DNA of 32,000 nt from Aliivibrio fischeri ES114 (GCF_000011805.1 NC_006841.2), one strand, 5' to 3'; positions 2,206-31,880 are shown, counted from the stretch's first letter. Made by a program: numbers and translations. The notes: generated by a model not told the origin, from the sequence alone.

Positions 2206-2223
2206 ATAAATATAACTAGAATC

Positions 2224-2247: not shown

Positions 2248-2285
2248 AATAAATTTAATACCAATTAACATAAGAAGATTATCAG

Positions 2286-2552: not shown

Positions 2553-2633
2553 AAATAAGTTTAATGAAGTTTAATGTTTAATTGAAAATCATTAAGTAAG
2601 GTTAGTACTTTGATAAGTATATGGAAATAAATT

Positions 2634-4277: not shown

Positions 4278-4339
4278 TTAATGGCTTTATTCACAAGAAG
4301 TATATGTAATTGGGGGTAAATTTTTTTGGGTTAAATAAT

Positions 4340-16262: not shown

Positions 16263-16264
16263 GT

Positions 16265-19258
16265 ATGGGATTTACCGAATTAAATAGTGTGGAACACTAC
16301 ATCATTCATCAAATTAGTGGTGTTAACTTAAACGACGCTCAATGCAAGAATCAAGTGTCTGAGCCTCAAGCTACGTATGCATTGCAATGGCAGTTCAAGT
16401 CTTCAGAGCAACTTGGTCGTGATGTTAATGAGGTACTAGTTGAATCTGAATTAGTTAAAGCGTTGATTCGCCTTAACCCTGAGATTGAAGCTAACCCACA
16501 TTTGGCTGATGAAGTAATACATAAGCTTCGCGCTATTTTAATTTCGGTAAATCAAGTTGGCTTAGTGAAAGCCAATGAAGAGTTTTTCGCCTGGATGACG
16601 GGCGAAAAAACAATGCCCTTTGGCGAAAATAACCGCCATGTACCAGTAAAGTTAATCGATTTAGAAGACTTAACTCGCAACGGCTATGTGGTCACTAATC
16701 AGTTCCGTATTCATCACAGAGAAACCAAAATACCTGACGTGGTATTAATGATTAATGGTATTCCGGTTGTGGTGGGTGAAGCGAAAACACCGATTCGGCC
16801 ATCTGTAAGTTGGCTAGATGGTGCCCATGAAGTACACAACATTTACGAAAACGCTGTACCGCAATTGTTTGTGCCGAATATTTTATCTTTTGCTACTGAA
16901 GGCAAAGAGCTGTTCTATGGCGCAATCCGTTGCCCATTAGAGTTCTGGGCCCCTTGGCGCACTGAAGAGGACGATAATTCAAAAGGCATCGGCCAAGTAT
17001 CTAAGGCTTTGGGGTTAACCGAGATTGGTAAAGAACTCATTGATCTATTAAGCCCTGTACGCTTACTCGATATTATGCGTAATTTCTCATTGTTTACCAC
17101 CAACAAAAAGAAACAGCGTATAAAGGTTATCCCACGCTTTCAGCAGTACGAAGGTGCCAATAAAATTGTTGAGCGCGTTATTGAAGGCAAAATCAAAAAA
17201 GGCTTAATTTGGCACTTCCAAGGTTCAGGTAAGTCATTGTTAATGGTCTTTGCTGCACAAAAACTTCGCCGTACCGCACAACTTAAAAGCCCAACAGTTA
17301 TTGTGCTGGTTGATAGAACCGATTTAGATACCCAAATCAGTGGCACCTTTAATGCTGCTGATGTCGCGAATGTGGAGTCAACCGATAGCATTAAAGAACT
17401 ACAGCGAATGCTAGAGCGTGATACACGTAAGATCATTATCTCGATGATCCACAAGTTCCGTGATGCTAAACCCAACATGAATACCCGTGAAAATATTATC
17501 GTGCTAGTGGATGAAGCCCACCGTACTCAAGAAGGTGATTTAGGCCGTCAAATGCGTGCAGCCTTACCTAATGCTTTCCTATTTGGTTTAACGGGTACGC
17601 CTGTAAACAAAGCAGATAAAAACACGTTCTGGGCATTTGGTGCAGAAGAAGACAAAGGCGGCTACATGTCGCGTTATACCTTTCATGACTCTATTCGTGA
17701 CGAAGCAACATTACCATTGCATTTTGAACCACGTTTAGTTGATGTTCATGTAGACAAAGAAGCGTTAGACAAGGCGTTTAAAGACTTTAAAGAAAGTGCA
17801 GCGCTTAGCGATGAAGAAGCCGATGCGCTTAATCAAAAGTCTGCAAAAATGTCGGCCTTTTTAAAATCACCAGAGCGAGTAGAAAAGATAGTTGAAGACA
17901 TTGCTATTCACTTTATGGATAAAGTTGAACCGCATGGTTTTAAAGCAATGGTAGTGACTCCGGATCGTGAGGCTTGTGTTCAATACAAAGAAGAGCTAGA
18001 TAAGCATTTCCCAGAATCTGCAAGTAAAGTTGTTATATCAACCAGTGCGAATGATGACTTTGAATTTAAACAGAAGTGGGGTGTTGATAAGAGCCAGCAA
18101 GAAAAACTAGTGGATGAATTTAATGATGAAAAGTCAGACCTGAAATTTCTTGTTGTTACCGCTAAATTGTTGACTGGATTTGATGCGCCAATCTGCCAAA
18201 CTATGTACCTCGATAAATCTATCAAGGATCACACGTTGTTACAGGCAATTTGTCGTACCAACCGTTTATATCCAAATAAAACCTTCGGCTGTATTGTTGA
18301 TTATTTTGGGGTGTTTGACGATGCAGCAAAAGCGCTAGAGTTTGATGAAGAAAGCGTTCAGCAAGTTATCTCCAATTTAAGTGAGTTACGCTCTAAACTT
18401 CCACAAGCAATGCAAGATACCTTAGCGCACTTTATTGGTGTAGATAGAAGCTTAGAAGGTTTCGAGGGGTTAGAAGCAGCGCAAAACGCCATTGGTGATA
18501 ATGATAAGAAAGATGCTTTCGCATTGGACTTTAAGTACCTTGCCAAGCTCTGGGAATCGCTTTCACCTGATAGTGTTCTCGATGAATATAATGAAGATTA
18601 TAAGTGGCTTGCTCAGGTCTATGAGTCAGTAAAACCAGCCTCAGACAATATTGGTAAACTGTTGTGGTTAGCTCTTGGCGCTCAGACAACTCAACTGATA
18701 CACGACAATGTACATGTTGGTGATGTTCATAACTTGGAAGAATTTGTTCTCGATGCTGATGTTATTGAGAATATTTTCAATAACCCCGATCCCCGTAAAA
18801 TAAAACAACTTGAAAAAGAGTTAGCAAAGCGTTTCAAAGACCGTGGTGATCTACCAGTATTCAAATCTTTGAGTGAACGTCTAGAAGAGTTACGTGATAA
18901 GGCTGAGAAGGGGCTAATTGCCTCAATCGATTTCGTAAAAGAGCTTTGTAAGATAGCGAAAGAAACCGTACAAGCAGAGAAAGACCTAGATGATGAACTT
19001 CAAGAGAAAACACCTCAAGCGGCTTTAACCGATCTTTTCTTAGAACTTAAAGACGATCAGACACCAGCAGTTGTCGAGCGTATTGTCACCGACATCGATG
19101 CTATTGTGCGTATCGTCCGATTCCCTGGTTGGCAAACCACAACTGGCGGTGAACGTGAGGTTCAAAAGTCTCTTCGTAAGGCTCTACTAAAGTACAAGCT
19201 ACACACAGACCAAACCCTATTCGACAGGGCTTATGGATACATTAAGGAATATTATTGA
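16265..19258 (+). CDS. hsdR: type I restriction endonuclease subunit HsdR
   Basis: It has an N-terminal PD-(D/E)xK motif (IPDVVLMINGIPVVVGEAKTP), Walker A (FQGSGKSL), a DEAH box (VLVDEAHRTQ) and helicase motif VI (LLQAICRTNR). Confidence 0.93.
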   Translation: MGFTELNSVEHYIIHQISGVNLNDAQCKNQVSEPQATYALQWQFKSSEQLGRDVNEVLVESELVKALIRLNPEIEANPHLADEVIHKLRAILISVNQVGLVKANEEFFAWMTGEKTMPFGENNRHVPVKLIDLEDLTRNGYVVTNQFRIHHRETKIPDVVLMINGIPVVVGEAKTPIRPSVSWLDGAHEVHNIYENAVPQLFVPNILSFATEGKELFYGAIRCPLEFWAPWRTEEDDNSKGIGQVSKALGLTEIGKELIDLLSPVRLLDIMRNFSLFTTNKKKQRIKVIPRFQQYEGANKIVERVIEGKIKKGLIWHFQGSGKSLLMVFAAQKLRRTAQLKSPTVIVLVDRTDLDTQISGTFNAADVANVESTDSIKELQRMLERDTRKIIISMIHKFRDAKPNMNTRENIIVLVDEAHRTQEGDLGRQMRAALPNAFLFGLTGTPVNKADKNTFWAFGAEEDKGGYMSRYTFHDSIRDEATLPLHFEPRLVDVHVDKEALDKAFKDFKESAALSDEEADALNQKSAKMSAFLKSPERVEKIVEDIAIHFMDKVEPHGFKAMVVTPDREACVQYKEELDKHFPESASKVVISTSANDDFEFKQKWGVDKSQQEKLVDEFNDEKSDLKFLVVTAKLLTGFDAPICQTMYLDKSIKDHTLLQAICRTNRLYPNKTFGCIVDYFGVFDDAAKALEFDEESVQQVISNLSELRSKLPQAMQDTLAHFIGVDRSLEGFEGLEAAQNAIGDNDKKDAFALDFKYLAKLWESLSPDSVLDEYNEDYKWLAQVYESVKPASDNIGKLLWLALGAQTTQLIHDNVHVGDVHNLEEFVLDADVIENIFNNPDPRKIKQLEKELAKRFKDRGDLPVFKSLSERLEELRDKAEKGLIASIDFVKELCKIAKETVQAEKDLDDELQEKTPQAALTDLFLELKDDQTPAVVERIVTDIDAIVRIVRFPGWQTTTGGEREVQKSLRKALLKYKLHTDQTLFDRAYGYIKEYY

Positions 19259-19282: not shown

Positions 19283-20608
19283 ATGCAAGTATTAGATGAT
19301 ATTTGGTCGTCAATAAAAGGTAATGCAAAAACAAGATACCGAGACCCTTTAATTGGTACTTTTATTGTGTCTTGGTGTTTCTGCAACTGGGATAAATTAG
19401 CATTCCTATTTTGGGGAACAGCAAAAGTTGAAGATAGAATCAGCTCTCTTGCTGAGAGCATGTCTGTTGTTACTGAACCTAGCTTAGTATTCACCGATTG
19501 GGATTTGATTATATTCCCAGTGGTGATCACGGCAGGCTACTTATTTCTTATGCCGTGGGCATCGCTATGGGTGAAGAGGAAGCAAGAGAAAAGCATTATC
19601 TCCCAGCATACACATGCGGTAGATTTAGACATCGAGCAGGCAAAGAAACAATGGGAGCTAAACAAAGAGAAGCTTCGTTCAAATCCTGAGAAAGATTTTC
19701 TAGCGAAGGATGTTGAATTAGATATACAAAGAGAAAAAGAACGTTTGGAGCGTAGAAATAAGATAACGAATTATATTGATAAAAAGGTTGAAGCTGCGAC
19801 TTTATTAGCTGAAAAAAGTAAACTAGATCTTGAAGACAAGAAAAGGTCAGATGAGAAAGAACGATTGGCACTACAAGAAAAGCAGCGTAGAGAAGACTCC
19901 GAGAAGCAACGCTTTGAAGAACATACCGCAATCCATCGTGCGACTCTAGCTTCTCACCGTTTCCCAGCAACCTATTACTTTATGGATTTACTTTCAAACT
20001 CTTTAAAAGAGGACAACGTAGTATTATCACTATCAGCACTTTCGTCTTGTGTAGCAGCAATTTTTGGCTATAAAACCGTAGATGAGTTAATCAACGATAA
20101 AGAGTTTCATAATGATAATTTAAAGTTGCTGAAATACATTGTGTTAGATGATGACCTAACGAAGAAACTAGATTCTATTTGTGAGCAAGAAGGTTCAGAT
20201 AATGAAGATGTAACACCAGATTTATTGTTTGATCATATATATGGCCTTTTTGATGAATTACCATACGAGTTGCTGTCAGATGAATCATTGGCAGAAATTA
20301 TTTCAGAAAGGATCAATACAGATGCTTATGATTTACTACAGAGTGATGATCTGTCAGGTTCTATGGCTGAGACGGATACAATTTTTGATGAAATAATACT
20401 AGAAATGGATGATTTTTCTTTGAATGATAGTTTTGACGTAAAGCTAAGCGGTTATGCAAGTGGTTCACACAGAAGAGAAGAAGGTGTTCATGGACAAGAT
20501 CTTACCGTCCATGTTGAAGCAAGTTGCCTGCCAGTGTTGGGATCATTTGGTTTGAAGGACTATGAACTTGAGATCAGTGGTAGCCCAAGAGACTATAGTC
20601 GTGAGTAG
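19283..20608 (+). CDS. hypothetical membrane-anchored coiled-coil protein with an acidic C-terminal domain
   Basis: GGAG lies 8 nt upstream of the ATG. Two hydrophobic segments are present (LIGTFIVSWCFCNWDKLAFLFWG and LIIFPVVITAGYLFLMPWASLWV). A K/E/R-rich coiled-coil stretch follows, then a D/E-rich C-terminus. There is no catalytic motif I recognise. Confidence 0.6.
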   Translation: MQVLDDIWSSIKGNAKTRYRDPLIGTFIVSWCFCNWDKLAFLFWGTAKVEDRISSLAESMSVVTEPSLVFTDWDLIIFPVVITAGYLFLMPWASLWVKRKQEKSIISQHTHAVDLDIEQAKKQWELNKEKLRSNPEKDFLAKDVELDIQREKERLERRNKITNYIDKKVEAATLLAEKSKLDLEDKKRSDEKERLALQEKQRREDSEKQRFEEHTAIHRATLASHRFPATYYFMDLLSNSLKEDNVVLSLSALSSCVAAIFGYKTVDELINDKEFHNDNLKLLKYIVLDDDLTKKLDSICEQEGSDNEDVTPDLLFDHIYGLFDELPYELLSDESLAEIISERINTDAYDLLQSDDLSGSMAETDTIFDEIILEMDDFSLNDSFDVKLSGYASGSHRREEGVHGQDLTVHVEASCLPVLGSFGLKDYELEISGSPRDYSRE

Positions 20609-20700
20609 AGAAAGAAGGGCTCTTCCGTTTACCCTAAAGATTTGACCTGCTACATGAACCTTTGGCCGTTTTGAGGTAGATTCTTGATACGATGGTTTGT

Positions 20701-20737
20701 GGTATGTAATACCTACCTATTTTACTGTTTTTATTTT
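20701..20737 (+). terminator. weak candidate terminator after the R-M operon
   Basis: ggtatgtaatacc forms a 5-bp stem with a 3-nt loop, nested in a longer aggtag...ctacct pairing (20674-20679 / 20713-20718). It is followed by attttactgtttttatttt. Confidence 0.3.
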
Positions 20738-21000
20738 AAATTATTGAAGGACTAAATATCTTCCTTATTCGTGTCATATTCTAAGTTCGGCGTTTTAAAG
20801 CTTCAACTAAAACTAAATGGGGATATTATTCGATATTAACATTTATAACAAAGTTGTGTAGGTCTACTTATGGCTCTTTCCTTTTATTTTTAGGTTAGGT
20901 CTAATGCTTTGAAAAGGTACGAGGCTTTGTGTCTAGTGACATGTTGTGTCGCATAAACGTAAGCTGTTTTATTTGATGTAAATTAGAAAGATAGATTTTA

Positions 21001-22650
21001 ATGGACAATATATACAAAGGCACGTTTATAGCCTTAGAGGCATGGACTAAAAGCCATAAGAATGAAGATGAGATAGTCGGTGATATTCATTTTCCAGATG
21101 ACGATATGATATATAGCGGAATTCTGGACTCATCATTGCTAAACAAGTGGAAGGTTTTTGAATTTGAAGCTGAAGCAGAAATACCAGTGTCTCTGGTAAG
21201 AGTGCAAAAAAGCGATGATTATGAATACGATTTTAAAGTTGAGACAGTAGACTTTGAAGTTGAAAACAAGTTTTCAACGACAGTTACTAACCTTGTCGCT
21301 GACACAAATAATGATAATAAAGTGAAAGGTAGGGTAACTATTTCTCAAGATAGCAAGCCTGGAATTAGGTGCTATATCAATATAGATCTGGGTACAAATA
21401 CATTTACTCTCCCTTCACAAAAATCCGCTTCGGATGGTGTTCATGCTGTTGTTAAATACAATTCAAAGCGTGAGTGGCCGTTTAGTGCCATCCAATTAGT
21501 GGGTGGATGTGTAGGCAATTTAATTGAATGTCCACAGTTAACCTTTCCAAAGACAACGCATGTGCCAGATGAAGGCTTTGATGAAGTCACTTTTCAATTT
21601 GGCACATTGAGCATTTACACACCACTTAGTGGCCAATTGTGGCACAAATTCAAAGACTCATTAGATTCTTATCGGTTACGTTTGAATATCCCCCAACACA
21701 ATGAATTCATTTTCCCGGTTGTTTATAAGTTATGGAAAAACGAGCAAAACCGCATTGATTTAAATAAGGCACATATTCGTAGAATCTTTTCAAAACAAAC
21801 ATGTATTGCTATAGAAGCCGACATCGAAGCAAAGGCAACTTCTACATGGTTTCGCCCTGAGGGCGTTAGATATGACGTAAGTATTCAGCACAATGAAATG
21901 ATGCTTCATGGTTTTAGAGATATAGAGATCAATACATCTGTTCAGTTTCAGCTCGAAGACGTTTGGGAAAAGCGACAAAGAGAAACGGACGAAGGAACAA
22001 AGATATTTTATAACAACAATAACCGCTGGCGTATTAAGCATATACAGTCCAATGAACAGCGAGTCTTGGCACTTAATGGAAAGGAGTTTAATGGTGAAGT
22101 GTTATTCGATTGGTCGTCTATTGGTGCCGAACATGATCTAGATGATGACCATTTACGGCGTTTAGTCCCATCTACGCAGTCTCAATGTTGGGTGACTGTA
22201 GAGGCTAAAGGAATCGGAAAGGTCGCCATTCAAGTCAACCCTTCAATGCTAAAGTTACATTCATTCATACCTTCAGGCAGCCAAGTAAAAATTAAGTTAC
22301 GTGTCGCACAACGTCGCGGTTTTGAAGATATCAATGAAGAAGGTGTTTTCGAAATATGGTGTGCAAGTATTTATGTCGATATTGAAAAAAGAACGCCTTC
22401 AATCTCGAGGACTCGCCGTTTGAAAATTGAGAGTGTTGAAAAATCAATAAGCAAGAATGACAATGAGATGTTGAAAATTAGTTTTTCTGATCCCACATCT
22501 AAATCTATAACAGTAAAAGAGTTTTCTCATCCCTTGTCTTATTTGAAAGCAATGAATCTTATCGATGTAACTGATAAATATTGCCATGTTACTGCCTTCC
22601 AAATTAATGACACTTTGCATGTGAAACGTATCGATTTAGTAGAGATGTAA
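21001..22650 (+). CDS. hypothetical protein (549 aa), first gene of the helicase-topoisomerase-like operon
   Basis: This long ORF ends 4 nt before the helicase gene. The sequence looks beta-strand-rich (alternating hydrophobic patterns) and has no catalytic motif I recognise. The Shine-Dalgarno is weak, so the exact start is uncertain. Confidence 0.6.
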   Translation: MDNIYKGTFIALEAWTKSHKNEDEIVGDIHFPDDDMIYSGILDSSLLNKWKVFEFEAEAEIPVSLVRVQKSDDYEYDFKVETVDFEVENKFSTTVTNLVADTNNDNKVKGRVTISQDSKPGIRCYINIDLGTNTFTLPSQKSASDGVHAVVKYNSKREWPFSAIQLVGGCVGNLIECPQLTFPKTTHVPDEGFDEVTFQFGTLSIYTPLSGQLWHKFKDSLDSYRLRLNIPQHNEFIFPVVYKLWKNEQNRIDLNKAHIRRIFSKQTCIAIEADIEAKATSTWFRPEGVRYDVSIQHNEMMLHGFRDIEINTSVQFQLEDVWEKRQRETDEGTKIFYNNNNRWRIKHIQSNEQRVLALNGKEFNGEVLFDWSSIGAEHDLDDDHLRRLVPSTQSQCWVTVEAKGIGKVAIQVNPSMLKLHSFIPSGSQVKIKLRVAQRRGFEDINEEGVFEIWCASIYVDIEKRTPSISRTRRLKIESVEKSISKNDNEMLKISFSDPTSKSITVKEFSHPLSYLKAMNLIDVTDKYCHVTAFQINDTLHVKRIDLVEM

Positions 22651-22654
22651 ATAT

Positions 22655-25600
22655 ATGAAAAAAGCTCTAGCCCTGCATTATAACTTATTACAAGGTCATC
22701 CATTTGGTCAGCTCAGTAAGCCATTATTGAGTAATCAGGATACTTTAATCGAAGCTCATGGCGACATCAAACCCAATGCTTTTGGTGCACTTTCAAAACT
22801 AAGCTGCCTTTATCCTTATAAAGGGTTTGAAACATACAATAAAGACTTATTGAAAACGTTAAATGACGTCAAAGTCTCTAAATCTAAAGAAAGTGATAGC
22901 GCTGGTGATGATAATCAAAGTTTAGACAAAAAACTACCCACTTTCAGCGGTGATAGATATGTTTTAGCAATTGATGTCAATCCTGCATATGGGCGAAAAA
23001 CGATCACGGTAATGATTATTCCTGTGAGAATAAAAAACCTTAGTGGGAACTATAATCGTTTTGTATTTTATCCAGATACATCTTCATTTCCGATAATCAA
23101 TCCAGAACTTTTGGAGGTAGAAGGAAATGTACCGCCACATTGTATCGGGAAAATGGAAAACTTTGATAAATTTGATTATTCAGTATTCAAAGAACCGACA
23201 GAAGACTTGCATGAGCTGTTTACAGTTTCTGAAGCAATGTTTGACAAAATCTGCGATACAACACTAGGTTCTATGGAACACCATGAATCACTCGGTCTCG
23301 ATAACCCAGATGTTACAGTGACGTTGCGTCGTGTGATGGCTGATAATTCGGCGAATCAACACATCATTAACCTCTATCGTGATCTCTTTACTGTTAGTGA
23401 CGATTCATTGACAGGAACGTCTGTATGTAAAACAGATTCTGCTTATAAAGATAATGGCAACGTAAAAAATCTAAATGATGATTACCTTATCAGCTTGCTC
23501 CAATCTCGAGAGAAGCCATTTCTGGCTCATATGGACGAATGCACCGGTACTGATACCGGCGATTACAGACACAGGGAGCTGTTTGCTCTAGATAACACAC
23601 AACGTGGAGCAGCGAGTGTTGCAACGCTCATGCGTGAAGGTGATGTTTTGGCCGTAAATGGACCACCAGGGTCTGGTAAAACCGCGATGCTCAAAGCCAT
23701 TATTAGTCATCAATATGTAGAAGCTGCTTTGGCTAAAGGTGATTGCCCGATCGTTATTGGTGTCGGTGGAACAAATCAGTCTGTTACTAACATTGTTAAT
23801 GCATTTCCTAACGTGTTGTATCAAGGCGATAGTAAAACACTGTTGCACATGAGACGGTGGATTGATGGACCTGCTAATTACGGTACATACTTTCCATCAA
23901 CTAGTATCAAAAATAATATGTCTCCCGAACTGCTCAAATCAGCGGTGCTAGGAGAGGTAGATAAATCAAATAAAGGTGGGGTTGTACGTTGGAGTGGAGA
24001 GCTAGCCAATTTAAATAACCCCTCAAAGTTAGATCAACTCATAGGTCAATTTACGAACTATTGTGGGCAACATTACACTACAACATTTAGTGATTTAGAA
24101 AGCTGCGTTGCACAATTACATCATACACTCACAGCTTACTCTAAAGCGATTAATACCTTGTATTATCAGCTTGTTGAAGAGTTTGACAAAGGTTTTGAGA
24201 CACACCCTAGTATTCACACATCATTTTCAAAATTTTTTGACGAGAAACACAGTAACAGTCAGGGGGCAGCCCAAATTAAAACCATGTACGATTTACTGCA
24301 TGGTGATGATTCGAAAAAAATTCAAATTATTTCAGACGTATGTCGAGAGTACCTGCGAGATAATGACTTAGAAGGTAACAATCCGGCTATATTAGCTAAC
24401 TTTGGCGTTCTTTCTGGTATGGCAAAAGTCATTCTTGCTGATCGCGCGGTAGACCTGCTAGTACGTTCAGAGCTGTTCCATTACGCAGCCCGTTATTGGG
24501 AAGGACGCTATCTGCTTTCTTGTTCGGAGCACTTCTTAATCTACGCATCTCCGTCAAACCTTGAAACTGCGCTTCGAAGAATGTGCATGATTACGCCAAT
24601 ACTGGTCTCAACTGTACAATCTGCGCCCAAAATTTTTGCTTATCAAAAGCCTTCAGGGATATCTGAGCAACCATATTTGTACGGGAAAGCAGATTTATTG
24701 ATTATTGATGAAGCTGGACAGGCAGATATAAGGAGTACGTTACCATTACTTGCGTTGGCAAAGAAAACCATCGCAGTCGGGGATATAGCTCAAATCCCTC
24801 CAGTAATACAAGATGTTACTCCGATACAAGAGCAAGGGTTGTTTCAGACATTGGGTATGGGAGTGAACGAAGCTCATACAAAGCGCTGTTTTGTTCATGC
24901 ATTTAAAAACCAGCTACTTCCTAGTATCAGCGGTAGCATCTTGCATGTGCTTCGACAGATCTCATGTGTCAACCACCAAGGGCAAGGCATGTCACTGCGT
25001 GGTCATTATCGATGCCAAGAAGTCTTGAGTCAGTTTTGTAATGAATTGGTCTATGACAATAGTATTTTTATTATCCCACCTCTTTTTAAAGAGAGGGGAC
25101 CATTTCGCCCACTTACTTGGGTTTCATCAGCATCGGAAACTCAAAAAGTAGGCACATCTCATAAGAATGAAAAAGAAGCTCGGACAATTGTAGAGTGGCT
25201 TATTGACCAATGGCCAAGGATTCATGATCACTATAACAAGCCGAGCAAGCCTAAAAAGCGTTTACCTGACTTAGTGGGTATTATCAGTCCATACAAAAAA
25301 CAAAGCTTAGTTTTTATTGGTCACGACGAGGATGATAGTGGAAGTAAAGGTAAAACTCAGGGCATGTTACATAGCCTTCTAATCAAAAAATTTAAAGGTA
25401 CTGAATATGAAATCACGGTTGATGATGTAGATAAAATGAAGATCGGTACCGTCAATGCACTGCAAGGTGCTGAAAAGCCGATTATTTTATTTAGCGGAAC
25501 TAAAAGTATTAAGTTTGGCGGAGATGTTCATTACCGTGCTGCAGCATATATCTTAAACGTTGCAGTTTCTCGTGCGAAAGAATGCTTTGTGGCATTTATT

Positions 25601-26719
25601 TGCGAAAAGACATTTGGGATCCCCACGGTAACAGAAGGGTTAATACCGCCAACTGACCCAAAATCTGATTCAGTAGGGTATTTAGGTTACTACATCGGCA
25701 AACGTGGAGAACGATTGTTCCCAAGAAGCGTTGTTATCATTGAATCAGACAACAAGATAAAGAAGCTCGAAGCGTTGCTCGGTAAGCGCTACATAGTGGT
25801 TAGCACTAAGGGGAAAGTATTAGGGTTACCATTTAGTGATGAAGAAGCTTTACTGGTAAAGAACGGTTTACACCCTAAATACCAGTACAATGTTAAAAAG
25901 AATCCGAAGAAAAAAAGTAATGACAAAGGTAACGCAGCTCGTAAAGCAGTTAGCGATATTTTACAGCTCTGCGGTGGTGCAGATATTGATGAAATTATTT
26001 TGGCAACGGATGATGACAATGTTGGTGAACACATCGCATGGCATTTACAAGAACTATTTAGGCAGCACCAACCTGACTCTCTTAAAAAGCTTCAGCGTGT
26101 TAGGCTCCGTGGTCTATCACCTAAAGCTGTTAAAGAAGCATTCGATGTAGATAATCGAGATTCGTTAGATATTGCACGAGCTTCTGCTGAGATGGTCAGA
26201 GAGTCATTGGATTTAATTCTAGGGAGAAAGTTAAGTGCAATTGCGCAGAAGTGTCCACTGGTTGGTCAAGGAGAAAGTGTTCGATTAGCTTTAGAGAAAC
26301 GACTAATTCAAGAGGTTGATGAACCTCAAGTCAAGGGAATGGGGCGAGTGAAGGCTGCTATTTTATCTCTCGCTTATGGTCATCTTAAAGAACAACTAGC
26401 TTCAATTACTCACCCCACAGAAGCGCCAGTAACTGTGATCGTAAACGGGAAAAAACTTCGAGGAAGGCTGGTTCAGCAGAGACAAAAGACTGAGGGCCAA
26501 GAGGTAGACAAGTCCATAGAATATATTCGTAATAAAGCGCCATTCGAGTCTGAGGGTTCAGGCTGGACCGTAATCGAATCTGAATTTGAGGAAAGGACGG
26601 TAAGCCCGCCGGATGCATCAACACTTAACGTGATGCGTCAAAATGCCATTGAACAACAAGTTAAACCCGTTGAGAGCTATAAAGCACTAACTGGGCTCTA
26701 TGAGGGAAATGATTTATGA
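22655..26719 (+). CDS. SF1B (Upf1/DNA2-like, AAA_11/AAA_12-type) helicase fused to the Toprim/N-terminal part of a topoisomerase IA core
   Basis: Helicase motifs are I GPPGSGKT (23660-23683), II IIDEAGQ (DEAGQ at 24707-24721), III VGDIAQIPPV, IV LRGHYRC, V GTVNALQGAEKPIILFS and VI LNVAVSRAKE. After residue ~1024 come the Toprim Glu (VVIIESDN, E1030 at 25742-25744) and DxD (ILATDDDNVGEHIAWHL, D1119-D1121 at 26009-26017). TopA-like GRVKAAILSL and LYEG follow. Confidence 0.85.
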   Translation: MKKALALHYNLLQGHPFGQLSKPLLSNQDTLIEAHGDIKPNAFGALSKLSCLYPYKGFETYNKDLLKTLNDVKVSKSKESDSAGDDNQSLDKKLPTFSGDRYVLAIDVNPAYGRKTITVMIIPVRIKNLSGNYNRFVFYPDTSSFPIINPELLEVEGNVPPHCIGKMENFDKFDYSVFKEPTEDLHELFTVSEAMFDKICDTTLGSMEHHESLGLDNPDVTVTLRRVMADNSANQHIINLYRDLFTVSDDSLTGTSVCKTDSAYKDNGNVKNLNDDYLISLLQSREKPFLAHMDECTGTDTGDYRHRELFALDNTQRGAASVATLMREGDVLAVNGPPGSGKTAMLKAIISHQYVEAALAKGDCPIVIGVGGTNQSVTNIVNAFPNVLYQGDSKTLLHMRRWIDGPANYGTYFPSTSIKNNMSPELLKSAVLGEVDKSNKGGVVRWSGELANLNNPSKLDQLIGQFTNYCGQHYTTTFSDLESCVAQLHHTLTAYSKAINTLYYQLVEEFDKGFETHPSIHTSFSKFFDEKHSNSQGAAQIKTMYDLLHGDDSKKIQIISDVCREYLRDNDLEGNNPAILANFGVLSGMAKVILADRAVDLLVRSELFHYAARYWEGRYLLSCSEHFLIYASPSNLETALRRMCMITPILVSTVQSAPKIFAYQKPSGISEQPYLYGKADLLIIDEAGQADIRSTLPLLALAKKTIAVGDIAQIPPVIQDVTPIQEQGLFQTLGMGVNEAHTKRCFVHAFKNQLLPSISGSILHVLRQISCVNHQGQGMSLRGHYRCQEVLSQFCNELVYDNSIFIIPPLFKERGPFRPLTWVSSASETQKVGTSHKNEKEARTIVEWLIDQWPRIHDHYNKPSKPKKRLPDLVGIISPYKKQSLVFIGHDEDDSGSKGKTQGMLHSLLIKKFKGTEYEITVDDVDKMKIGTVNALQGAEKPIILFSGTKSIKFGGDVHYRAAAYILNVAVSRAKECFVAFICEKTFGIPTVTEGLIPPTDPKSDSVGYLGYYIGKRGERLFPRSVVIIESDNKIKKLEALLGKRYIVVSTKGKVLGLPFSDEEALLVKNGLHPKYQYNVKKNPKKKSNDKGNAARKAVSDILQLCGGADIDEIILATDDDNVGEHIAWHLQELFRQHQPDSLKKLQRVRLRGLSPKAVKEAFDVDNRDSLDIARASAEMVRESLDLILGRKLSAIAQKCPLVGQGESVRLALEKRLIQEVDEPQVKGMGRVKAAILSLAYGHLKEQLASITHPTEAPVTVIVNGKKLRGRLVQQRQKTEGQEVDKSIEYIRNKAPFESEGSGWTVIESEFEERTVSPPDASTLNVMRQNAIEQQVKPVESYKALTGLYEGNDL

Positions 26720-27219
26720 TCCAGTCAAATAGTGCGCATGAACCAATTGAAATTATTGTGGATGAACATGAGTTAGCTGAAACATATAAATTACTTGCGC
26801 AAAAACATAAATCTAGTTCAAACGACTCATATCTACATATGAGTAAAACACTTAATACTCTTGAAGCTTTTGAGAAAGCTAACAACACAGGTGACTGTGA
26901 ATATCAGATGGCTCGTGTGGTCTTACAATCAAACAAAAGAGGTTCTGTTGTAGTTGAGCTTGAAACTCATGTTTTGGTAGAGCAAGGTTGGACTGAACAT
27001 TTGTCCATTGACATAGAGAACACAGTTGACGTCGGAATTACCAAGGCTGATCTTGCGGCATTTAAGCAAGGAAACTTTAGTGTTGAGATCTCCAAGCCAC
27101 AAGCAATCTCAAATCTGACAGTTGAAGACTTATTGTCATTAATGGACAAGTACATGATTGGTCGTCCATCGACTTATGCCGAATTATTTGCGATCTTACA
27201 GAAGAGAGTAATTTGTTAA
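26716..27219 (+). CDS. topoisomerase IA core fragment (middle part), separate ORF
   Basis: SAHEPIEI, EQGWTEH and MIGRPSTYAELFAILQKR match TopA EAHEAIRP, FDGWTKV and GIGRPSTYASIISTIQDR, recalled from memory, in the same order. The start forms an ATGA overlap with the helicase ORF. Confidence 0.7.
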   Translation: MIQSNSAHEPIEIIVDEHELAETYKLLAQKHKSSSNDSYLHMSKTLNTLEAFEKANNTGDCEYQMARVVLQSNKRGSVVVELETHVLVEQGWTEHLSIDIENTVDVGITKADLAAFKQGNFSVEISKPQAISNLTVEDLLSLMDKYMIGRPSTYAELFAILQKRVIC

Positions 27220-27479
27220 ATATTGATGGCGATAACGTTAGATTAACGACTTTAGGACTCTTGATGGCAGAACATCTTGCCAATGAGACGTTGGACGAGT
27301 TCTCACCGACTTTCAGTTTGATACTTGGTCAAGATTTAGAAAAAATAGGACAAGGAAAAATGTCGCCACTGGATGTTCTGATAAAGTACCTTCCTCTTGT
27401 AGGGGATGAAAATGAGTTCGATGACTTCAGAGAGAACGTATGGCATACCTTGTCTGATATTAGTATTGAAGTGTATTAG
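27213..27479 (+). CDS. topoisomerase IA core fragment (C-terminal part), reached by a -1 frame change; separate ORF or frameshifted continuation
   Basis: LNIDGDNVRLTTLGLLMAEHL continues the TopA alignment ([21 protein letters not shown]) directly after ...LQKRV of the previous ORF. The only available start is the TTG at 27213, which overlaps the previous ORF by 7 nt. Confidence 0.55.
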   Translation: MLNIDGDNVRLTTLGLLMAEHLANETLDEFSPTFSLILGQDLEKIGQGKMSPLDVLIKYLPLVGDENEFDDFRENVWHTLSDISIEVY

Positions 27480-27489
27480 GGGATAGTTT

Positions 27490-28893
27490 GTGAGTAAGAT
27501 CAGCTACCCACGCACGCAAACAAAAAGAGCAACTCAGAGTAAGTGTAGTGAGTTGATAAAACGCATCGATTATTTGCTTTTAAAAAGTCACTTAACCGAA
27601 GCTGAGCTTGAAGAGTTAATTGCCCTTATTGGTTGTATAAATTGGGCTTATGGTGCTCGAAGTTACAGGCTCAAAGCTCTCAGACGTATACACGAGTTAC
27701 GTCAAAAGGTGTTACATGAGCAAGATGAGCAATATCAACAAGAGCTAGACACCTATTATCAAAAGCAAGCTGAGTTAGAAGAGCAACGCAAAGCAGCTAT
27801 AGAGGCTGGAAACAACATCAATATGTTTGATGCCCAGCTAACGTCGTTACAGCAGAATATCGCCTTACATAATGCTTTCATCAAGAGCGCTAATGAACTG
27901 AAGCTAGAAATCCAAACTGCAACGTTACTGTTGACGTCTAGTCACGATGTACGTTCAAGTGCGGATAAACTAAATCAGCCGTTTGAAGATGACTCTTCTT
28001 TTAAGCCCTACAATTTTAAAGAGTTAGCTGATACTAATGGTTCTAAATACTATCACGACCAGTACGGTGAAATATTACGTGAGACCGACTTGGAACAAGT
28101 TGATATAACACAGTACGAAGATCGTGCTAAAAATATCAACAGGGATAAATTAATTTCGGACGCTGAACGGTCACAGTTAGAAAGTGAAGTGGATAACATC
28201 AACACTTTATCTATCGACGCGCGGAAAGCAATTTTTGATGGGTGGATGAAAGGTGGAATCACTCATCTTGATAACGAGTTTGAAGAACTAAAAGATGTTA
28301 ATAAGTGTATTCAAGTGCTAAATGACTTTGGTGTGATGTTTGATACGTACAGTGAGTTAGGAAAGCGAGGAGTTGGTCAGGAAATGTTCCATAAATATGG
28401 CTATCAAAAGGAGCATTATCCTCCATATTCATGCTTTACAGAAAGGTTGAAAATCGGCAAAGAGTCACGAGGCAGTATTCCGTTGATTGATGGGTTGAAT
28501 AACTACAATGAGAAAAAGGCTCTTTGCTTTGCGATTTTTGATGGTCAACACATTGATGAAGAACATTATAAAGTTACCCGTGCATCTGAAGCGTTTATGA
28601 AGGAACTACAGGCGAAAGGTGAGAATGCCACTTTAGGCCAATGGCTTGATAAAGCTGTTGAGTGGAATGCCGAAATTTTCACTGAACGCTTAGAGCGTGA
28701 TGCAAAAGAACCGTACGATAGGGATGCTCTGGCGAAACAAGGACGCAAAGCCGCTGTTGCCATGAGAAATGTTACACAAGCACACTTTGTTAGTTTGGAA
28801 GGTTCTAATGTATTGAGTCTCAAATTAGAAAATGGGAAACACAGAAACAAACTAAACCCAAAGACAGCGAGCAGGGACCAAAATGATTTATAA
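27490..28893 (+). CDS. hypothetical coiled-coil protein (467 aa)
   Basis: The GTG start has AGGGGA upstream. A long Q/E/L-rich heptad-like stretch is present (EQYQQELDTYYQKQAELEEQRKAAIEAG...). No catalytic motif is recognisable. Confidence 0.6.
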   Translation: MSKISYPRTQTKRATQSKCSELIKRIDYLLLKSHLTEAELEELIALIGCINWAYGARSYRLKALRRIHELRQKVLHEQDEQYQQELDTYYQKQAELEEQRKAAIEAGNNINMFDAQLTSLQQNIALHNAFIKSANELKLEIQTATLLLTSSHDVRSSADKLNQPFEDDSSFKPYNFKELADTNGSKYYHDQYGEILRETDLEQVDITQYEDRAKNINRDKLISDAERSQLESEVDNINTLSIDARKAIFDGWMKGGITHLDNEFEELKDVNKCIQVLNDFGVMFDTYSELGKRGVGQEMFHKYGYQKEHYPPYSCFTERLKIGKESRGSIPLIDGLNNYNEKKALCFAIFDGQHIDEEHYKVTRASEAFMKELQAKGENATLGQWLDKAVEWNAEIFTERLERDAKEPYDRDALAKQGRKAAVAMRNVTQAHFVSLEGSNVLSLKLENGKHRNKLNPKTASRDQNDL

Positions 28894-29860
28894 CCACGAA
28901 ATTTCACGCCTTCGTGAAACCAAAAATAGAGATGCAGTTCTGGCAATAATGGTCAGTGTTCCTGACAACGGCAGTATGCCTACGAGTGATGTTTATCTTG
29001 GTATCTTTGATGAAAGCAAGGATAGTGGCTTTTGCTTTTGGACAAACAGTACCGTACTGGATGCCGCTATGACTCTGTCTAACCAGTTCTGGTGTGTAGA
29101 TAATGAAGGGCATGTATTTACAACATCAACATTGGTTAACGCTCCTTTGGCAGTATTGGAGGACGTTTCTTTTGGTTATAAAAAAGAGTACCTCTCCAAA
29201 ATTAATGCTTATCGTTTTTCTGAGTTACCAATCAATACGTTATGGTGTTGTGATCGACTAACTATACTTGCAGACGAATCGGGTACAGTGTGTCATATCG
29301 AAGGTGACAAAGTCACGTTACACTCTCTGGATCTAATTCCATTATCTTTTTTTGGAAATGCTTACAATGATTTATATCTATATGGCCGAAAAGCGAAGCT
29401 TTGGCATTTCAATGGTATACAGTGGACTGAAATCGCATTGCCTGATGTTGGACTTGATCATTTAGCGATCTCTGGAGGAATTGTACTTAGTGACGGGAAT
29501 GTGATGTTTGTGACATCTTACGGATTTGTTTTCAAAGGTAATGCTAAAAAAGGATTTTCGCTACTCTCAACTCTTAAAAAACTTTATTCGGGAATCTGTC
29601 AGTATCAGGGGCGCTATTTTGTCAGCGCAAAAGATGAAGGGTTGTTTGAGGTGACGAATATTGATAATCAATGGCAATTTCATCTCATTTCACCAGCGCG
29701 GCTTCCTCTTTCACTTCATACAATGGGTCAGGAAGGGAACCAAGCTCTATTTATGGTGAGCGCATTGAATATTGGGAAACCGCATTTTGTTGTTGTGGAT
29801 CCAGGCAACAATTTTGGAGAAAAAGAAAGAGCATATAGTTGGGAGATAAACATTGAATAA
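28883..29860 (+). CDS. hypothetical protein (325 aa), possibly beta-propeller-like
   Basis: It overlaps the upstream ORF by 11 nt. Short strand-turn motifs recur (GHVFTTS, GTVCHIEGDKV, LWHFNGIQWTEI, GNVMFVTSYGFVFKG, GRYFVSAKDEGLFEV), reminiscent of propeller blades. The fold call is inference only. Confidence 0.55.
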   Translation: MIYNHEISRLRETKNRDAVLAIMVSVPDNGSMPTSDVYLGIFDESKDSGFCFWTNSTVLDAAMTLSNQFWCVDNEGHVFTTSTLVNAPLAVLEDVSFGYKKEYLSKINAYRFSELPINTLWCCDRLTILADESGTVCHIEGDKVTLHSLDLIPLSFFGNAYNDLYLYGRKAKLWHFNGIQWTEIALPDVGLDHLAISGGIVLSDGNVMFVTSYGFVFKGNAKKGFSLLSTLKKLYSGICQYQGRYFVSAKDEGLFEVTNIDNQWQFHLISPARLPLSLHTMGQEGNQALFMVSALNIGKPHFVVVDPGNNFGEKERAYSWEINIE

Positions 29861-30443
29861 CATAACGATCGTACAGCAGATTGAAGAACTTTCTGTTTAT
29901 GCAAATTACCTAGATGAATCTGATCAACGCAAGCTGGTGGTTTGGTTCGAGTTGTTAAGAAATGCACTTCAAAGCAATGATTTAAATAAATCACAGAGAG
30001 AGTCGTTGTGTCGACTGATGGTTGCTCAATGTACGCCAAATCGTTGTAAGAATGCAGGTGCTGTATTGTTCTATGTTCCATATGCACTTCGCTGTTACTT
30101 TATCCTAGGAGACTTTTCTGAAGTAAATCTTAAGAGAATGAAGGAGTTATATGCATTATTAAACCCTGAAAATTTGATTGAGGTATTGGATTGCCACTTT
30201 TTCTTCCACCAACTCTTTGGCTTTCCCAAAAAGTTGGTGAGAATCATAGAAGATGCAGATAAACAGTCAGCTCAATCGTCTATGGATGTTAAAGCGTTTG
30301 TCTTTGCAATTAAACAAGCAAACACAATGACAATGGGAGCGATTAACAAGTTTGAATATTTACCAAGTATTAAATCAGATAGTGCTTGGAAAAAATTGCC
30401 GTGGTTGAAGTGGCAGTTGAGCACGATGAAAAACATAATGTAA
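29853..30443 (+). CDS. hypothetical helical protein (196 aa), last gene of the operon
   Basis: The TTG start has GGGAG 9 nt upstream and overlaps the previous ORF by 8 nt. No motif is recognisable. Confidence 0.5.
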   Translation: MNNITIVQQIEELSVYANYLDESDQRKLVVWFELLRNALQSNDLNKSQRESLCRLMVAQCTPNRCKNAGAVLFYVPYALRCYFILGDFSEVNLKRMKELYALLNPENLIEVLDCHFFFHQLFGFPKKLVRIIEDADKQSAQSSMDVKAFVFAIKQANTMTMGAINKFEYLPSIKSDSAWKKLPWLKWQLSTMKNIM

Positions 30444-30671: not shown

Positions 30672-30692
30672 GAGGCAGCTTTACGCTGCCTC
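30672..30692 (-). terminator. hairpin spanning the integrase stop codon (candidate terminator)
   Basis: gaggcagc (30672-30679) pairs with gctgcctc (30685-30692) around a 5-nt loop. On the minus-strand transcript it is followed by ttcattaaataaatt. Confidence 0.5.
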
Positions 30693-31880
30693 ATCTATAT
30701 AATTACTCCACCAGCACATAATCTCTTTTCTTTGTTCTAAATAATCAGAACGGTTGTAACTGGCTCTCACTTCATTTTGGTCGGCATGTGATAAACAAGC
30801 TTCAATCAATAAACTATCAAAACCGTACTCGTGAAGGGCAGTAGAAGCTATAGCACGCAATCCATGAGCAACTAACTCATCTTTTAGCCCAAGACTACGC
30901 TTTATGGCTGCATTTGCTGTAAACAAGCTTACATGGCTATTTATATCTCGCTCACCAGGAAAGACATAATCACATCGTTTGCTTTGTAATCGAATCTGAT
31001 TCAGAATGTTGATTGCTTGTGATGTCAGCGGTATACGGTGTTCTTTTCTGCGTTTCATATTCTCAGCAGGGATAGTCCATACGCCTTTTTCTAAATCAAT
31101 ATCTATCCAGCGAGTTGTTGCCGCTTCCTTTGGGCGCGTCATTGTGTGTAGCTGCCATAAAATGAGCAATTTAGTTTTAGTTTGTATTGTTGAACATGAA
31201 TGCAGTCGTTTTAAAAAATCAGGTAATTGCTCTGGCCGAATAGTAGGCATGTGCAAAACTGTATTTTTACGAAAAACTTTAATTATTTTTGCTAATGGAT
31301 TTGCGTGTATTAAACCGTGGTTAACTGAGTAATCCATGATTTGGTTAAGGCTTTGGCAAATTCGTTTAACCGTCGAGTATTTACCTTCTTTTTCTAGAGG
31401 TCGTAATACATCTATTGTTTCTACAGCAGTGATCGTAGCAACAGGAATTTTGCTCATATGAGGGAAAATATATTTTTCTAATGTCCGCCATTCCCGGTAT
31501 GAATGCGCAGGAGAAACCGTTTCTTTTTTTCGTTCAAACCATTGTTCTGCAACTACGATAAAAGTCGACGTCTGTACTCTTTTCGCCTCAAGCTCTTTAC
31601 TTTGTTCAAATGACTTAGGGTTGATTTTTTGAGCTAAGAGTGTTCGGTACTCAGTTGTTTTGGATCGAGCATTAGCAAGAGATAATTCAGGATAAGGGCC
31701 AAGTGCTATTTTCTGAATCTTTCTTGTTACAGGGTCACTGAATTTAAATTGCCATGATTTAGCCCCAGTTGGACGTACACGCAATTGTAATCCTTCACCA
31801 TCAGATAATGTAAATTCTTTCCCTGTTGGTGCTGCTGATTTTATCTTTCTATCAGTAAGACGAATTACTTGACGAGCCAT
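30681..31880 (-). CDS. int: P4-type tyrosine recombinase/integrase (DUF4102 N-terminal arm-binding domain plus phage-integrase catalytic domain)
   Basis: The N-terminus LTDRKIKSAAPTGKEFTLSDGEGLQLRVRPTGAKSWQFKF is typical of P4-like integrases. Catalytic-domain landmarks are TMTRPKEA (Arg), AHGLRAIAST (HxxR) and CLSHADQNEVRASYNRSDY (His ... Tyr). Confidence 0.93.
   Translation of the reverse strand: MARQVIRLTDRKIKSAAPTGKEFTLSDGEGLQLRVRPTGAKSWQFKFSDPVTRKIQKIALGPYPELSLANARSKTTEYRTLLAQKINPKSFEQSKELEAKRVQTSTFIVVAEQWFERKKETVSPAHSYREWRTLEKYIFPHMSKIPVATITAVETIDVLRPLEKEGKYSTVKRICQSLNQIMDYSVNHGLIHANPLAKIIKVFRKNTVLHMPTIRPEQLPDFLKRLHSCSTIQTKTKLLILWQLHTMTRPKEAATTRWIDIDLEKGVWTIPAENMKRRKEHRIPLTSQAINILNQIRLQSKRCDYVFPGERDINSHVSLFTANAAIKRSLGLKDELVAHGLRAIASTALHEYGFDSLLIEACLSHADQNEVRASYNRSDYLEQRKEIMCWWSNYIDEAA

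Follow-up and report, generated by a model that had tools for sequence, protein, structure and literature searches.

A six-gene operon on chromosome II of Aliivibrio fischeri

We analysed a 32,000-nucleotide stretch of chromosome II of Aliivibrio fischeri ES114 (GCF_000011805.1, NC_006841.2; hereafter the window), in which positions 21001 to 30443 hold an operon combining a helicase, a type IA topoisomerase-like core that is divided among three proteins, and a putative toxin domain with an immunity-like partner. A sequence-only reading had earlier described this operon as seven translationally coupled genes and as a candidate undescribed defence system. The open reading frame (ORF) call reproduced all seven plus-strand ORFs, which correspond to VF_A0541-VF_A0547 (annotated as 'superfamily I DNA helicase', 'DNA topoisomerase' or 'hypothetical protein'), together with all six proposed junctions: gaps of 4 nt at the first and 10 nt at the fourth, an ATGA overlap at the second, and overlaps of 7, 11 and 8 nt at the third, fifth and sixth. 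The third and fourth ORFs, however, are halves of a single gene, which leaves six genes, A to F.

21001..22650, plus strand: gene A (VF_A0541), 549 aa, first gene in the operon, from the ORF call
22655..26719, plus strand: gene B (VF_A0542), 1354 aa, from Pfam, PADLOC, NCBIfam and phmmer
26716..27479, plus strand: gene C, 254 aa when intact, here VF_A0543 and VF_A0544, from Pfam Topoisom_bac and the frameshift comparison
26716-27219, plus strand: VF_A0543, the 167-aa half of C, from the ORF call
27213-27479, plus strand: VF_A0544, the 88-aa half of C, from the ORF call
27490..28893, plus strand: gene D (VF_A0545), 467 aa, from the ORF call, alignment and an AlphaFold2 (AF2) model
28883..29860, plus strand: gene E (VF_A0546), 325 aa, from the ORF call and a hidden Markov model (HMM) of E
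29853..30443, plus strand: gene F (VF_A0547), 196 aa, from the ORF call

The division of gene C was traced to one base. The alignment of a 253-aa Salinimonas homologue to the window switches frame near 27190, and over 19,347 bp the same island in other assemblies differs from the window only by one extra base at 27183, where they read GCCGATATTATT and the ES114 reference reads GCCGAATTATT, a 1-nt deletion. It is a deletion relative to at least 20 otherwise identical assemblies, which encode an intact 254-aa C (WP_047863603.1). This intact form is recorded on 95 contigs and the split 167-aa/88-aa form only in the ES114 reference; in all relatives C is a single gene of 246-282 aa. The operon therefore has six genes, one of them broken by the deletion, and because the two halves are one gene the 7-nt overlap of the third and fourth ORFs is a frameshift artefact. 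The deletion is either an error of the reference sequence or a change private to the sequenced stock. A promoter and terminator scan returned fewer sites than in shuffled sequence.

Gene B joins a Mokosh-like helicase to the first part of a topoisomerase

Two regions of B could be assigned to known families, preceded by an N-terminal region and closed by the C-terminal end '...LTGLYEGNDL'.

B residues ~290-985, window ~23522-25609, plus strand: superfamily 1 (SF1) helicase, Upf1/Mokosh-like, with Pfam AAA_11 and AAA_12 and the Walker A lysine K342 in GPPGSGKT
B residues ~1020-1354, window ~25712-26716, plus strand: type IA topoisomerase (topo IA) part, Toprim and then the first parts of domains IV, II and III

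Searched against PADLOC, B matched MkoC (Mokosh type II) with an E-value of 3.9e-131 and 437 bits, and MkoA with an E-value of 4.3e-23; the MkoC match, in its best-scoring stretch, reaches no further than model position 941 of 1136. Beyond this helicase no operon product matched any PADLOC defence model, and no PLD-family nuclease was found in the six products at E<=0.1 in Pfam or NCBIfam. The strong MkoC match means that the cassette is not unrelated to every named system; the remaining products do stand apart from the PADLOC models. The distinction drawn from Gabija, PARIS and Wadjet was confirmed, since none of the seven ORFs matched GajA/B, AriA/B or JetA-D at E<=0.1, and membership in these three systems was ruled out on that ground.

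The Toprim domain of B was recognised by Pfam at an E-value of 3.6e-13. Of its acidic residues, E1030, D1119 and D1121 never vary among 26 B homologues, and E1125 is kept in at least 90% of them. The residues singled out from the sequence alone (K342 as the Walker A lysine, E1030 and D1119 as Toprim acids) were correctly placed. Positions 2-160 of the NCBIfam model topA_bact match B residues 1027-1198 with 78 bits, against a cut-off of 456, and the last ~335 residues align by phmmer with residues ~5-253 of the Mycobacterium tuberculosis and E. coli TopA proteins, covering Toprim and the first parts of domains IV and II. The reverse gyrase model TIGR01054 reached 34.2 bits against a cut-off of 471.7 and matched in the Toprim region only. 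The aligned B homologues share an invariant L-Y-x-G (L1348, Y1349 and G1351 of B), and 24 of the 26 end a few residues later; the other two are fused forms of 1573 and 1646 aa that continue past it. A frameshift as the origin of the boundary between B and C was ruled out, as homologues of 1260-1354 aa end at the same 'LYEG' in these 24 cases. The four Pfam families put forward for checking were thus all found, AAA_11, AAA_12 and Toprim in B and Topoisom_bac, as a partial match, in C.

A type IA topoisomerase core divided among B, D and C

Where B stops, C takes up the fold further on. It begins 'SNSAHEPI', corresponding to the domain III AHEAIRP motif, and also holds the domain IV sequence 'GRPSTYA'. 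Every C homologue begins 'M..(S)NSAH(E/D/A)', with the domain III histidine invariant or nearly so. C matches positions 251-354 of the 411 of Pfam Topoisom_bac, aligns with residues 444-535 of Thermotoga maritima Topo I and is colinear with the C-terminal part of the fused 1573/1646-aa forms. The stretch of TopA that lies between 'LY(E)G' and 'AHE' is missing from both B and C, and in the fused forms a Pro-rich linker replaces it. In E. coli TopA, 'LYEAG' is followed by 'YITYMRTDS', which holds the catalytic Tyr319 and Arg321, and 'AHEAIRP' comes ~40 residues on.

The missing stretch lies at the start of the next gene:

D residues 1 to ~35, window 27490-27594, plus strand: active-site tyrosine segment 'MSKISYPRTQT...' (Tyr6, Arg8), from alignment, motif search and chimeras

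Nineteen aligned D sequences, on average 25% identical, share just three fully conserved columns, Y6, P7 and R8. The motif '(I/L)(S/T)YPR(T/S)' occurs within the first ~10 residues of the gene that follows C, or fused BC, in ~35 loci from all clades; its other matches among 5,362 ORFs are few and scattered. The YPR motif is likewise found at the D N-terminus of the one relative in IMG/VR and of a Polaromonas plasmid cassette. For locus L006 we then placed D residues 3-40 between B(1020-1351) and C(4-254), repeated the graft for loci of two other clades, and scored the resulting chimeras with Pfam Topoisom_bac:

L006: 84.5 bits with the real peptide, 61.6 with a shuffled peptide, 61.3 with none
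L003: 56.7 bits with the real peptide, 36.5 with a shuffled peptide, 31.9 with none
L021: 103.0 bits with the real peptide, 83.1 with a shuffled peptide, 79.7 with none

The D peptide gained 20-23 bits over its shuffled counterpart in all three, and the shuffled peptide itself added 0-5 bits. In L006 the graft yielded one colinear match over HMM positions 3-410 of 411, compared with 211-410 without the peptide. A short B|D chimera also aligned unbroken across the junction with human TOP3A (E 1.3e-4), '...TMRIAEKLYtQGYISYPRTET' standing against '...TMRILQQLY-EGYITYPRTSGS', and with TOP3B.

Alignments, motif placement and chimeras together place the predicted topo IA core on three proteins, B, the N-terminus of D, and C. 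The 'full topo-IA-like core' previously ascribed to the 1354-aa protein is accordingly not contained in it. Because the D peptide fits between B and C, the order along the fold is B, D(1 to ~35), C, and the gene order here is B, C, D; judged by sequence colinearity, the N-terminus of D would dock into the gap in domain III. Measured against a canonical topo IA, the operon has the Toprim acids and the tyrosine motif, the latter on a separate polypeptide, and lacks a single-chain core of domains I-IV. Among the known naturally split topo IA enzymes we found none with a tyrosine peptide acting in trans. A further candidate, a topo IA core devoid of its tyrosine and acting as a hydrolytic Toprim nuclease, was dropped once the YPR motif was found on D.

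The tyrosine-bearing protein carries a putative toxin domain

Behind its N-terminal peptide, D holds two further regions:

D residues 57-148, plus strand: long antiparallel coiled coil, from the AF2 model
D residues ~275-455, window ~28312-28854, plus strand: C-terminal alpha/beta toxin domain, common to RHS-type toxins

In the AF2 model (predicted local distance difference test score, pLDDT, 87.8) residues 1-8 are disordered and are followed by helices at 12-49, the coiled coil at 57-148 and an alpha/beta region at ~265-443. A Foldseek search of this model against the PDB returned coiled-coil look-alikes only, with a best E-value of 0.26. Within the toxin domain H309, D351, Q353, E358 and H359 are invariant, and E308 is conserved in at least 90% of sequences.

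A HMMER scan of 1.84 billion representative sequences identified 48 clusters related to D. The N-terminal Y(P/I)R motif is retained in full-length relatives. The C-terminal domain also turns up without the rest of D, in proteins of ~200 aa, after N-terminal regions of several kinds, and as the tip of an RHS protein (P0054) that has Pfam RHS and RHS_repeat matches and a 'DPMGL' boundary. An HMM built solely from the non-cassette toxin proteins found D in clades 1 and 3 and in locus L044 (E-values of 1e-9 to 1e-34); the same HMM gave no match to D of clade 2 or of the fused forms. D itself carries no RHS, PAAR, trafficking or secretion module, its N-terminal part consisting of the topo IA peptide and the coiled coil, with no Pfam match.

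Gene E follows this toxin domain beyond the operon. In two unrelated loci, L054 and L055, E homologues lie directly after stand-alone toxin-domain genes (E-HMM E-values of 4.9e-27 and 1.9e-33), and for this reason we read E as a putative immunity protein. Among the cassettes E is present only where D has this toxin domain, two metagenome-assembled loci (L022 and L023) apart. From the gene pairs conserved at the two outside loci and from this distribution, E looks like an immunity-like partner of the D toxin domain. Against PDB profiles it gave weak beta-propeller matches only, and it is probably a beta-propeller. The claim that the 467-aa and 325-aa products have no placeable motif was thus overturned for D, with its topoisomerase tyrosine motif and RHS-type toxin domain, and probably also for E. 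Set against polymorphic toxins, the operon shows a varying toxin domain shared with RHS proteins and, judged by gene pairs, a co-varying downstream partner, and it lacks a trafficking module.

The stand-alone pairs were seen at L054 5001-10854 and L055 6001-7616. One lies on a chromosome beside RHS genes, and the other on a mobilisable element with a relaxase, ArdA and AbiH.

A plasmid variant with a different candidate toxin

A variant cassette in the order B, D, immunity, C was found on plasmid 2 of Polaromonas sp. JS666 (L056; NC_007950.1 109399-117800). Its first gene encodes a 590-aa protein without assignment and its second a B-like protein of 1414 aa. The third, the D equivalent, encodes 262 aa, begins 'MSGVSSYPRTRG' and is annotated as HNH-motif-containing. 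It is followed by a 'YrhA family' protein with a Pfam SUKH-1 match (E 7.8e-5) and then by a 363-aa equivalent of C that begins 'MTMHAHPMLTP'. The genes on this conjugative plasmid follow the order of the topoisomerase fold, suggesting insertion of a toxin-immunity pair into a gene for a topoisomerase. Polymorphic toxin systems are recognised by a C-terminal toxin that varies and is matched by the gene downstream of it, and, as judged from both cassette types, the tyrosine-bearing protein is a carrier of an exchangeable putative toxin domain with its matching downstream partner, following polymorphic-toxin logic. A HepT/MNT toxin-antitoxin pair lies just downstream of the Polaromonas cassette.

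The remaining genes, A and F

Pfam, NCBIfam, PADLOC and PHROGs gave no match for A, D, E or F, nor for the accessory genes of other clades, among the families searched, and the statement that the products contain no recognisable motif stands for the 549-aa and 196-aa proteins. A is beta-rich and the most variable component of the operon, with clade 1 homologues of 540-735 aa in the same position. It likewise had no PDB profile match, its AF2 model is poor (pLDDT 48.5), and a Foldseek search with this low-confidence model found nothing significant (best E 0.01). The non-significant top list consists mostly of oligonucleotide-binding-fold (OB-fold) binders of single-stranded DNA (ssDNA), among them SSB, LEF-3, Teb1, Rim1, the Lin28 CSD, HIN and RMI1-RMI2, a weak hint from the model that A may hold OB-fold ssDNA-binding modules. 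F is helical, is conserved in clade 1 and is weakly similar, by HMM, to the last gene of clade 3 cassettes; it has no match among PDB profiles either.

The cassette is conserved, rare and found among defence genes

B homologues of 1260-1354 aa occur in Vibrio, Photobacterium, Salinimonas, Psychrosphaera, Pseudomonas and others, and the two fused relatives of 1573 and 1646 aa carry Pfam Topoisom_bac. A species-level scan of 185,579 genomes, one per species, returned 44 loci, mostly in Gammaproteobacteria and also in Burkholderiales, Alphaproteobacteria, Verrucomicrobia and Silvanigrellaceae. The same gene order is kept in ~40 loci from several orders of Proteobacteria and beyond, which exceeds chance and marks the cassette as a conserved unit with all its genes in one orientation. 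Four arrangements were distinguished (lengths in aa):

Clade 1, Vibrio and relatives: A(540-735)-B-C(246-254)-D(440-467)-E(~322)-F(~195)
Clade 2, Pseudomonas and others: A'(655-696)-B-C(~264)-D(358-393)-(~172)
Clade 3, Psychrobacter and others: A''(~590-606)-B-C-D-E-(~235)
Fused form, metagenomic and other contigs: X(330-401)-BC(1573-1673)-(301-324)-(260-280)-(108-130)

B is 95-96% identical in Pseudoalteromonas and Alteromonas, which points to recent horizontal transfer. It had one relative in 2.9 million viral contigs (IMG/VR), and D had no homologue in a phage collection or in 72,556 plasmids. A phage- or plasmid-borne system was rejected on the strength of these counts, with the Polaromonas cassette as the one plasmid variant.

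The proposed defence-island setting was borne out by the relatives, in which the cassette lies repeatedly among known defence genes and integrases. In V. owensii (L004) a restriction-modification (R-M) system, an AAA_15/21 gene and McrBC lie upstream, and a ThiF-UQ_con-JAB cluster and an integrase downstream. In P. leiognathi (L005) a VWA-PP2C-Pkinase cluster (TerY-P-like) lies upstream at 552-3101, and in V. vulnificus (L002) the cassette is in an AlpA/RadC island with a type I R-M system. In 17 further loci with 101 flanking ORFs, the top Pfam families were ResIII/DEAD (6), Phage_integrase (6), N6_Mtase/HsdM_N (4), HSDR_N (3) and rve (3); housekeeping families were also present among these ORFs, and no conjugation genes were among the top flanking families of the chromosomal loci examined. 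The V. owensii cluster (19662-23009, ThiF-UQ_con-Prok-JAB) resembles a Bil-like ubiquitin-like conjugation system.

A proposed mechanism and its alternatives

With modest confidence, and arguing from sequence comparison, we propose that the operon encodes a six-gene conflict system, most likely directed against phages or plasmids, in which a helicase-coupled, three-piece topo IA cleavage centre would leave D covalently linked to its target and E would hold the toxin. B, C and the N-terminal ~35 residues of D would assemble into one topo IA-like cleavage centre, to which B would give the Toprim acids, C the domain III histidine and most of domains II and IV, and D the nucleophile Tyr6 and the arginine. 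D would be the effector carrier, its long coiled coil leading to an RHS-tip-type toxin domain that E would hold in check. F would be an accessory protein and A possibly an OB-fold ssDNA binder. The trigger would be the engagement of invader nucleic acid by the Mokosh-type SF1 helicase of B, which would expose a single strand. The split topoisomerase would then cut the exposed strand through Tyr6 of D and, because the tyrosine belongs to a separate protein, D would stay covalently on the 5' end. Such a break would be hard to reseal, and the toxin domain of D would be brought to, or released at, the target. Sequence comparison shows the gene content and its conservation, the division of the core in three, the placement of the tyrosine motif, the relationship between the D toxin domain and E, and the genomic setting; assembly, cleavage, covalent attachment, trigger and defence phenotype are predictions. 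We entertain more tentatively the stronger form of this proposal, in which a 5'-phosphotyrosyl bond ties the D toxin to invading ssDNA or RNA as an irreversible adduct and so activates a tethered nuclease-like domain belonging to an exchangeable toxin-immunity pair (the D domain with a putative beta-propeller, or HNH with SUKH). As a defence mechanism this would be without known precedent.

Several observations weigh against this proposal. A type IA topoisomerase normally reseals the break that it makes, and the split enzyme might simply be a working topoisomerase. The toxin domain of D has no match in Pfam or, by profile and Foldseek searches, in the PDB. At L022 8436-10136 and L023 6704-8404 (a Pseudomonas and a Thiopseudomonas metagenome-assembled genome, respectively) the D N-terminus, with YPRS, is fused to an E-like region in a 566-aa protein in which the toxin domain was not detected, an arrangement that a plain toxin-immunity scheme accommodates poorly. 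In several Pseudomonas loci the flanking genes are housekeeping rather than defence genes. Finally, gene C is frameshifted in the window, and a genuine deletion might leave the ES114 reference copy without activity.

The same genes could instead act in a Mokosh-like abortive infection, with the topoisomerase pieces serving only as a scaffold or switch. The helicase would sense RNA or DNA intermediates of the phage, a conformational change in B, C and D would free the D toxin from E, the cell would die, and the tyrosine would be kept for binding or assembly. The strength of B as an MkoC homologue speaks for this, as does the dependence of Mokosh defence on the helicase ATP site and a separate nuclease effector (10.1101/2022.05.11.491447). 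The toxin-immunity logic of D and E would hold equally, and the C-terminal domain of D varies between clades while its N-terminal peptide stays, as a docking handle would. We nevertheless find it an unlikely account, since the Toprim E and DxD..E residues, the tyrosine, the arginine and the histidine are invariant across clades at ~25-30% identity, and conservation of the whole catalytic set is hard to explain without chemistry; the fused BC forms, moreover, still keep the tyrosine on a separate protein. At the far end of the range, a decayed topoisomerase gene with chance co-oriented neighbours, and hence no real unit, would be in keeping with the frameshifted C and the fragmented core of the window. 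It is scarcely credible, and in effect refuted by the comparative data: split points, order and lengths are kept across many genera at 25-35% identity with the catalytic residues invariant, and the frameshift is unique to the ES114 record.

Mobile elements offer another origin for the set, as a DNA-processing module (relaxase-like or replication-initiating, with D as a 5'-linked pilot or terminal protein) or as an addiction module of the island. A helicase combined with a 5'-tyrosyl linkage is the logic of TraI-type relaxases. The cassette lies in integrase-bearing islands and on the conjugative Polaromonas plasmid, and its near-identical copies in Vibrionales and Alteromonadales indicate horizontal transfer. 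The loci mapped, however, have no conserved adjoining type IV secretion system, coupling protein, oriT-type relaxase partner or replication genes; its place within islands varies, with defence genes around it and, in several loci, no integrase nearby; an RHS-type or HNH toxin domain with an immunity-like partner would be superfluous in a pilot protein; and the 72,556 plasmids hold no D homologue. We consider this origin improbable, and more improbable still that the operon is an unusual cellular helicase-topoisomerase, like reverse gyrase or RecQ-Top3-RMI, with the extra genes as regulators. The complete active-site set is conserved, naturally split topo IA enzymes exist (the reverse gyrase of Methanopyrus kandleri, and the Topo III and reverse gyrase of Nanoarchaeum equitans), and helicase, topo IA and a possible OB fold in A weakly echo the dissolvasome. 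The cassette is nonetheless thinly and unevenly distributed, with 44 loci among 185,579 species genomes and no more than 48 clusters related to D among 1.84 billion representatives; it lies in islands, passes horizontally between hosts and includes a toxin/immunity pair, and its helicase belongs to the Mokosh defence family rather than to the superfamily 2 (SF2) RecQ or reverse gyrase type.

Comparison with known systems

Mokosh is an anti-phage system of one or two genes that combines a Upf1-like helicase with a PLD nuclease, located either in the same protein (type II, MkoC) or in a partner gene (type I, MkoA/MkoB) (10.1101/2022.05.11.491447). B resembles it as a COG1112-type SF1 helicase with an intact Walker A motif, close to the MkoC and MkoA models; in both cases the helicase is joined to a nucleic-acid-cutting effector, predicted in the operon studied here, and both are found in defence islands. 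The operon differs in having no PLD nuclease, in placing Toprim and a split topo IA core where the effector would be, and in its five further conserved genes. Defence finders may consequently mislabel B as Mokosh.

A helicase module coupled to a naturally divided topo IA is also found in the two-subunit reverse gyrase of M. kandleri, which is split between polypeptides that reassemble (PMC4117796), and Topo III and reverse gyrase of N. equitans are naturally split as well (PMC10969213, table). Those enzymes are two-piece, essential and linked to an SF2-like helicase, whereas the operon has an SF1 helicase and three pieces, its tyrosine lies on a ~35-residue N-terminal peptide of a toxin-carrying protein, and its gene order is permuted (B,C,D against a fold order of B,D,C). 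B is not a reverse gyrase by sequence, its helicase being SF1 (AAA_11/AAA_12) and its score against the family model falling below the cut-off. The RecQ-Top3-RMI1/2 dissolvasome likewise pairs a helicase and a topo IA with, possibly, an OB-fold protein, and the B|D junction aligns best with TOP3A. There, however, the helicase is of another superfamily and the topoisomerase is unsplit, whereas the operon has toxin/immunity genes and an island location, and the OB fold in A comes from a low-confidence model.

D shares with RHS polymorphic toxins a C-terminal domain seen at an RHS tip with an E homologue after it, and, in the HNH form, a SUKH/YrhA partner. It differs from them in lacking RHS, PAAR and secretion parts and in being embedded in a helicase operon, and for these reasons its toxin presumably acts intracellularly. 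Defence systems that use a Toprim metal centre include Gabija (GajA), PARIS (AriB), Wadjet (JetD) and the OLD nucleases. The operon has no PADLOC match to any of their models at E<0.1, and its Toprim is of topo IA type, comes with the rest of the core and the catalytic tyrosine, and is not an OLD, topo VI or primase-type Toprim paired with an ABC ATPase.

The literature searched contained no description of the cassette or of its locus tags. We rate it as outside every known kind of system, and its defence function as a prediction. The proposal of an undescribed defence system is thereby partly supported, by conservation, genomic context and the absence of earlier descriptions. If the proposed mechanism is right, a topoisomerase has been turned into a weapon, its reversible cleavage intermediate becoming a covalent protein-DNA or protein-RNA lesion. 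To our knowledge the principle of a covalent topoisomerase lesion is familiar from topoisomerase poisons and not from immune systems. The enzyme would also set a precedent among natural type IA topoisomerases, in that a short N-terminal peptide would supply the nucleophile in trans. It would offer a ready system for studying how the gate opens and how the break is religated, and perhaps a means of tagging nucleic acids covalently at chosen sites. In evolutionary terms it would link Mokosh/Upf1-type helicases, topoisomerases and polymorphic toxins. Annotation pipelines label these genes 'AAA domain-containing protein', 'DNA topoisomerase' or 'hypothetical protein'. A. fischeri ES114 is a genetically tractable model, and Vibrio lentus, V. 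crassostreae and V. splendidus, whose interactions with phages have been studied, carry close relatives of the cassette.

Neighbouring genes in the window

The operon is flanked by the following genes, and Pfam bears out the type I R-M system and GmrSD-like gene reported upstream as well as the P4-type integrase downstream:

10063-10233, plus strand: small helix-turn-helix (HTH) gene, from the ORF call
10230-11711, plus strand: hsdM, from Pfam
11708-13579, plus strand: GmrSD_N/DUF262 gene, from Pfam
13576-15042, plus strand: second hsdM, from Pfam
15042-16262, plus strand: hsdS, from Pfam
16265-19258, plus strand: hsdR, from Pfam
19283-20608, plus strand: VF_A0540, 441 aa, from the ORF call and PHROGs
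30681..31880, minus strand: P4-type tyrosine integrase, convergent with the operon, from Pfam Arm-DNA-bind_3, Phage_int_M and Phage_integrase

The two hsdM genes flank the GmrSD_N/DUF262 gene, all with ATGA-type overlaps, and are followed by hsdS and hsdR (10230-19258). A tandem double-hsdM type I R-M system also adjoins the cassette in V. vulnificus (L002) and V. thalassae (L025). The small ORF at 10063-10233 encodes 56 aa with the look of an excisionase/AlpA-like HTH protein (MTDQILTLKEVVTYLKL...GGSWRFKREDLEAWIE) and overlaps the hsdM start by ATGA; a 58-aa HTH_17 gene occupies the equivalent place before the R-M system of V. vulnificus. Neither a tRNA nor a convincing att repeat was found at the island ends.

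VF_A0540 starts 24 nt after hsdR. It has no Pfam match and resembles phrog_4780 (function not assigned; E 1.5e-19), with an apparent layout of hydrophobic segments at the N-terminus, then a charged, coiled-coil-like stretch, and an acidic C-terminal end. The gene travels with the island in Aliivibrio, is present in some Vibrio and may constitute a single-gene defence candidate in its own right. The leftmost part of the window (1-4300) is very low in G+C (22-32%) and holds two MCP genes, and just left of the island, at 7531-9771, lies a gene for a 746-aa ankyrin-repeat protein, which we rate as unusual for a bacterium.

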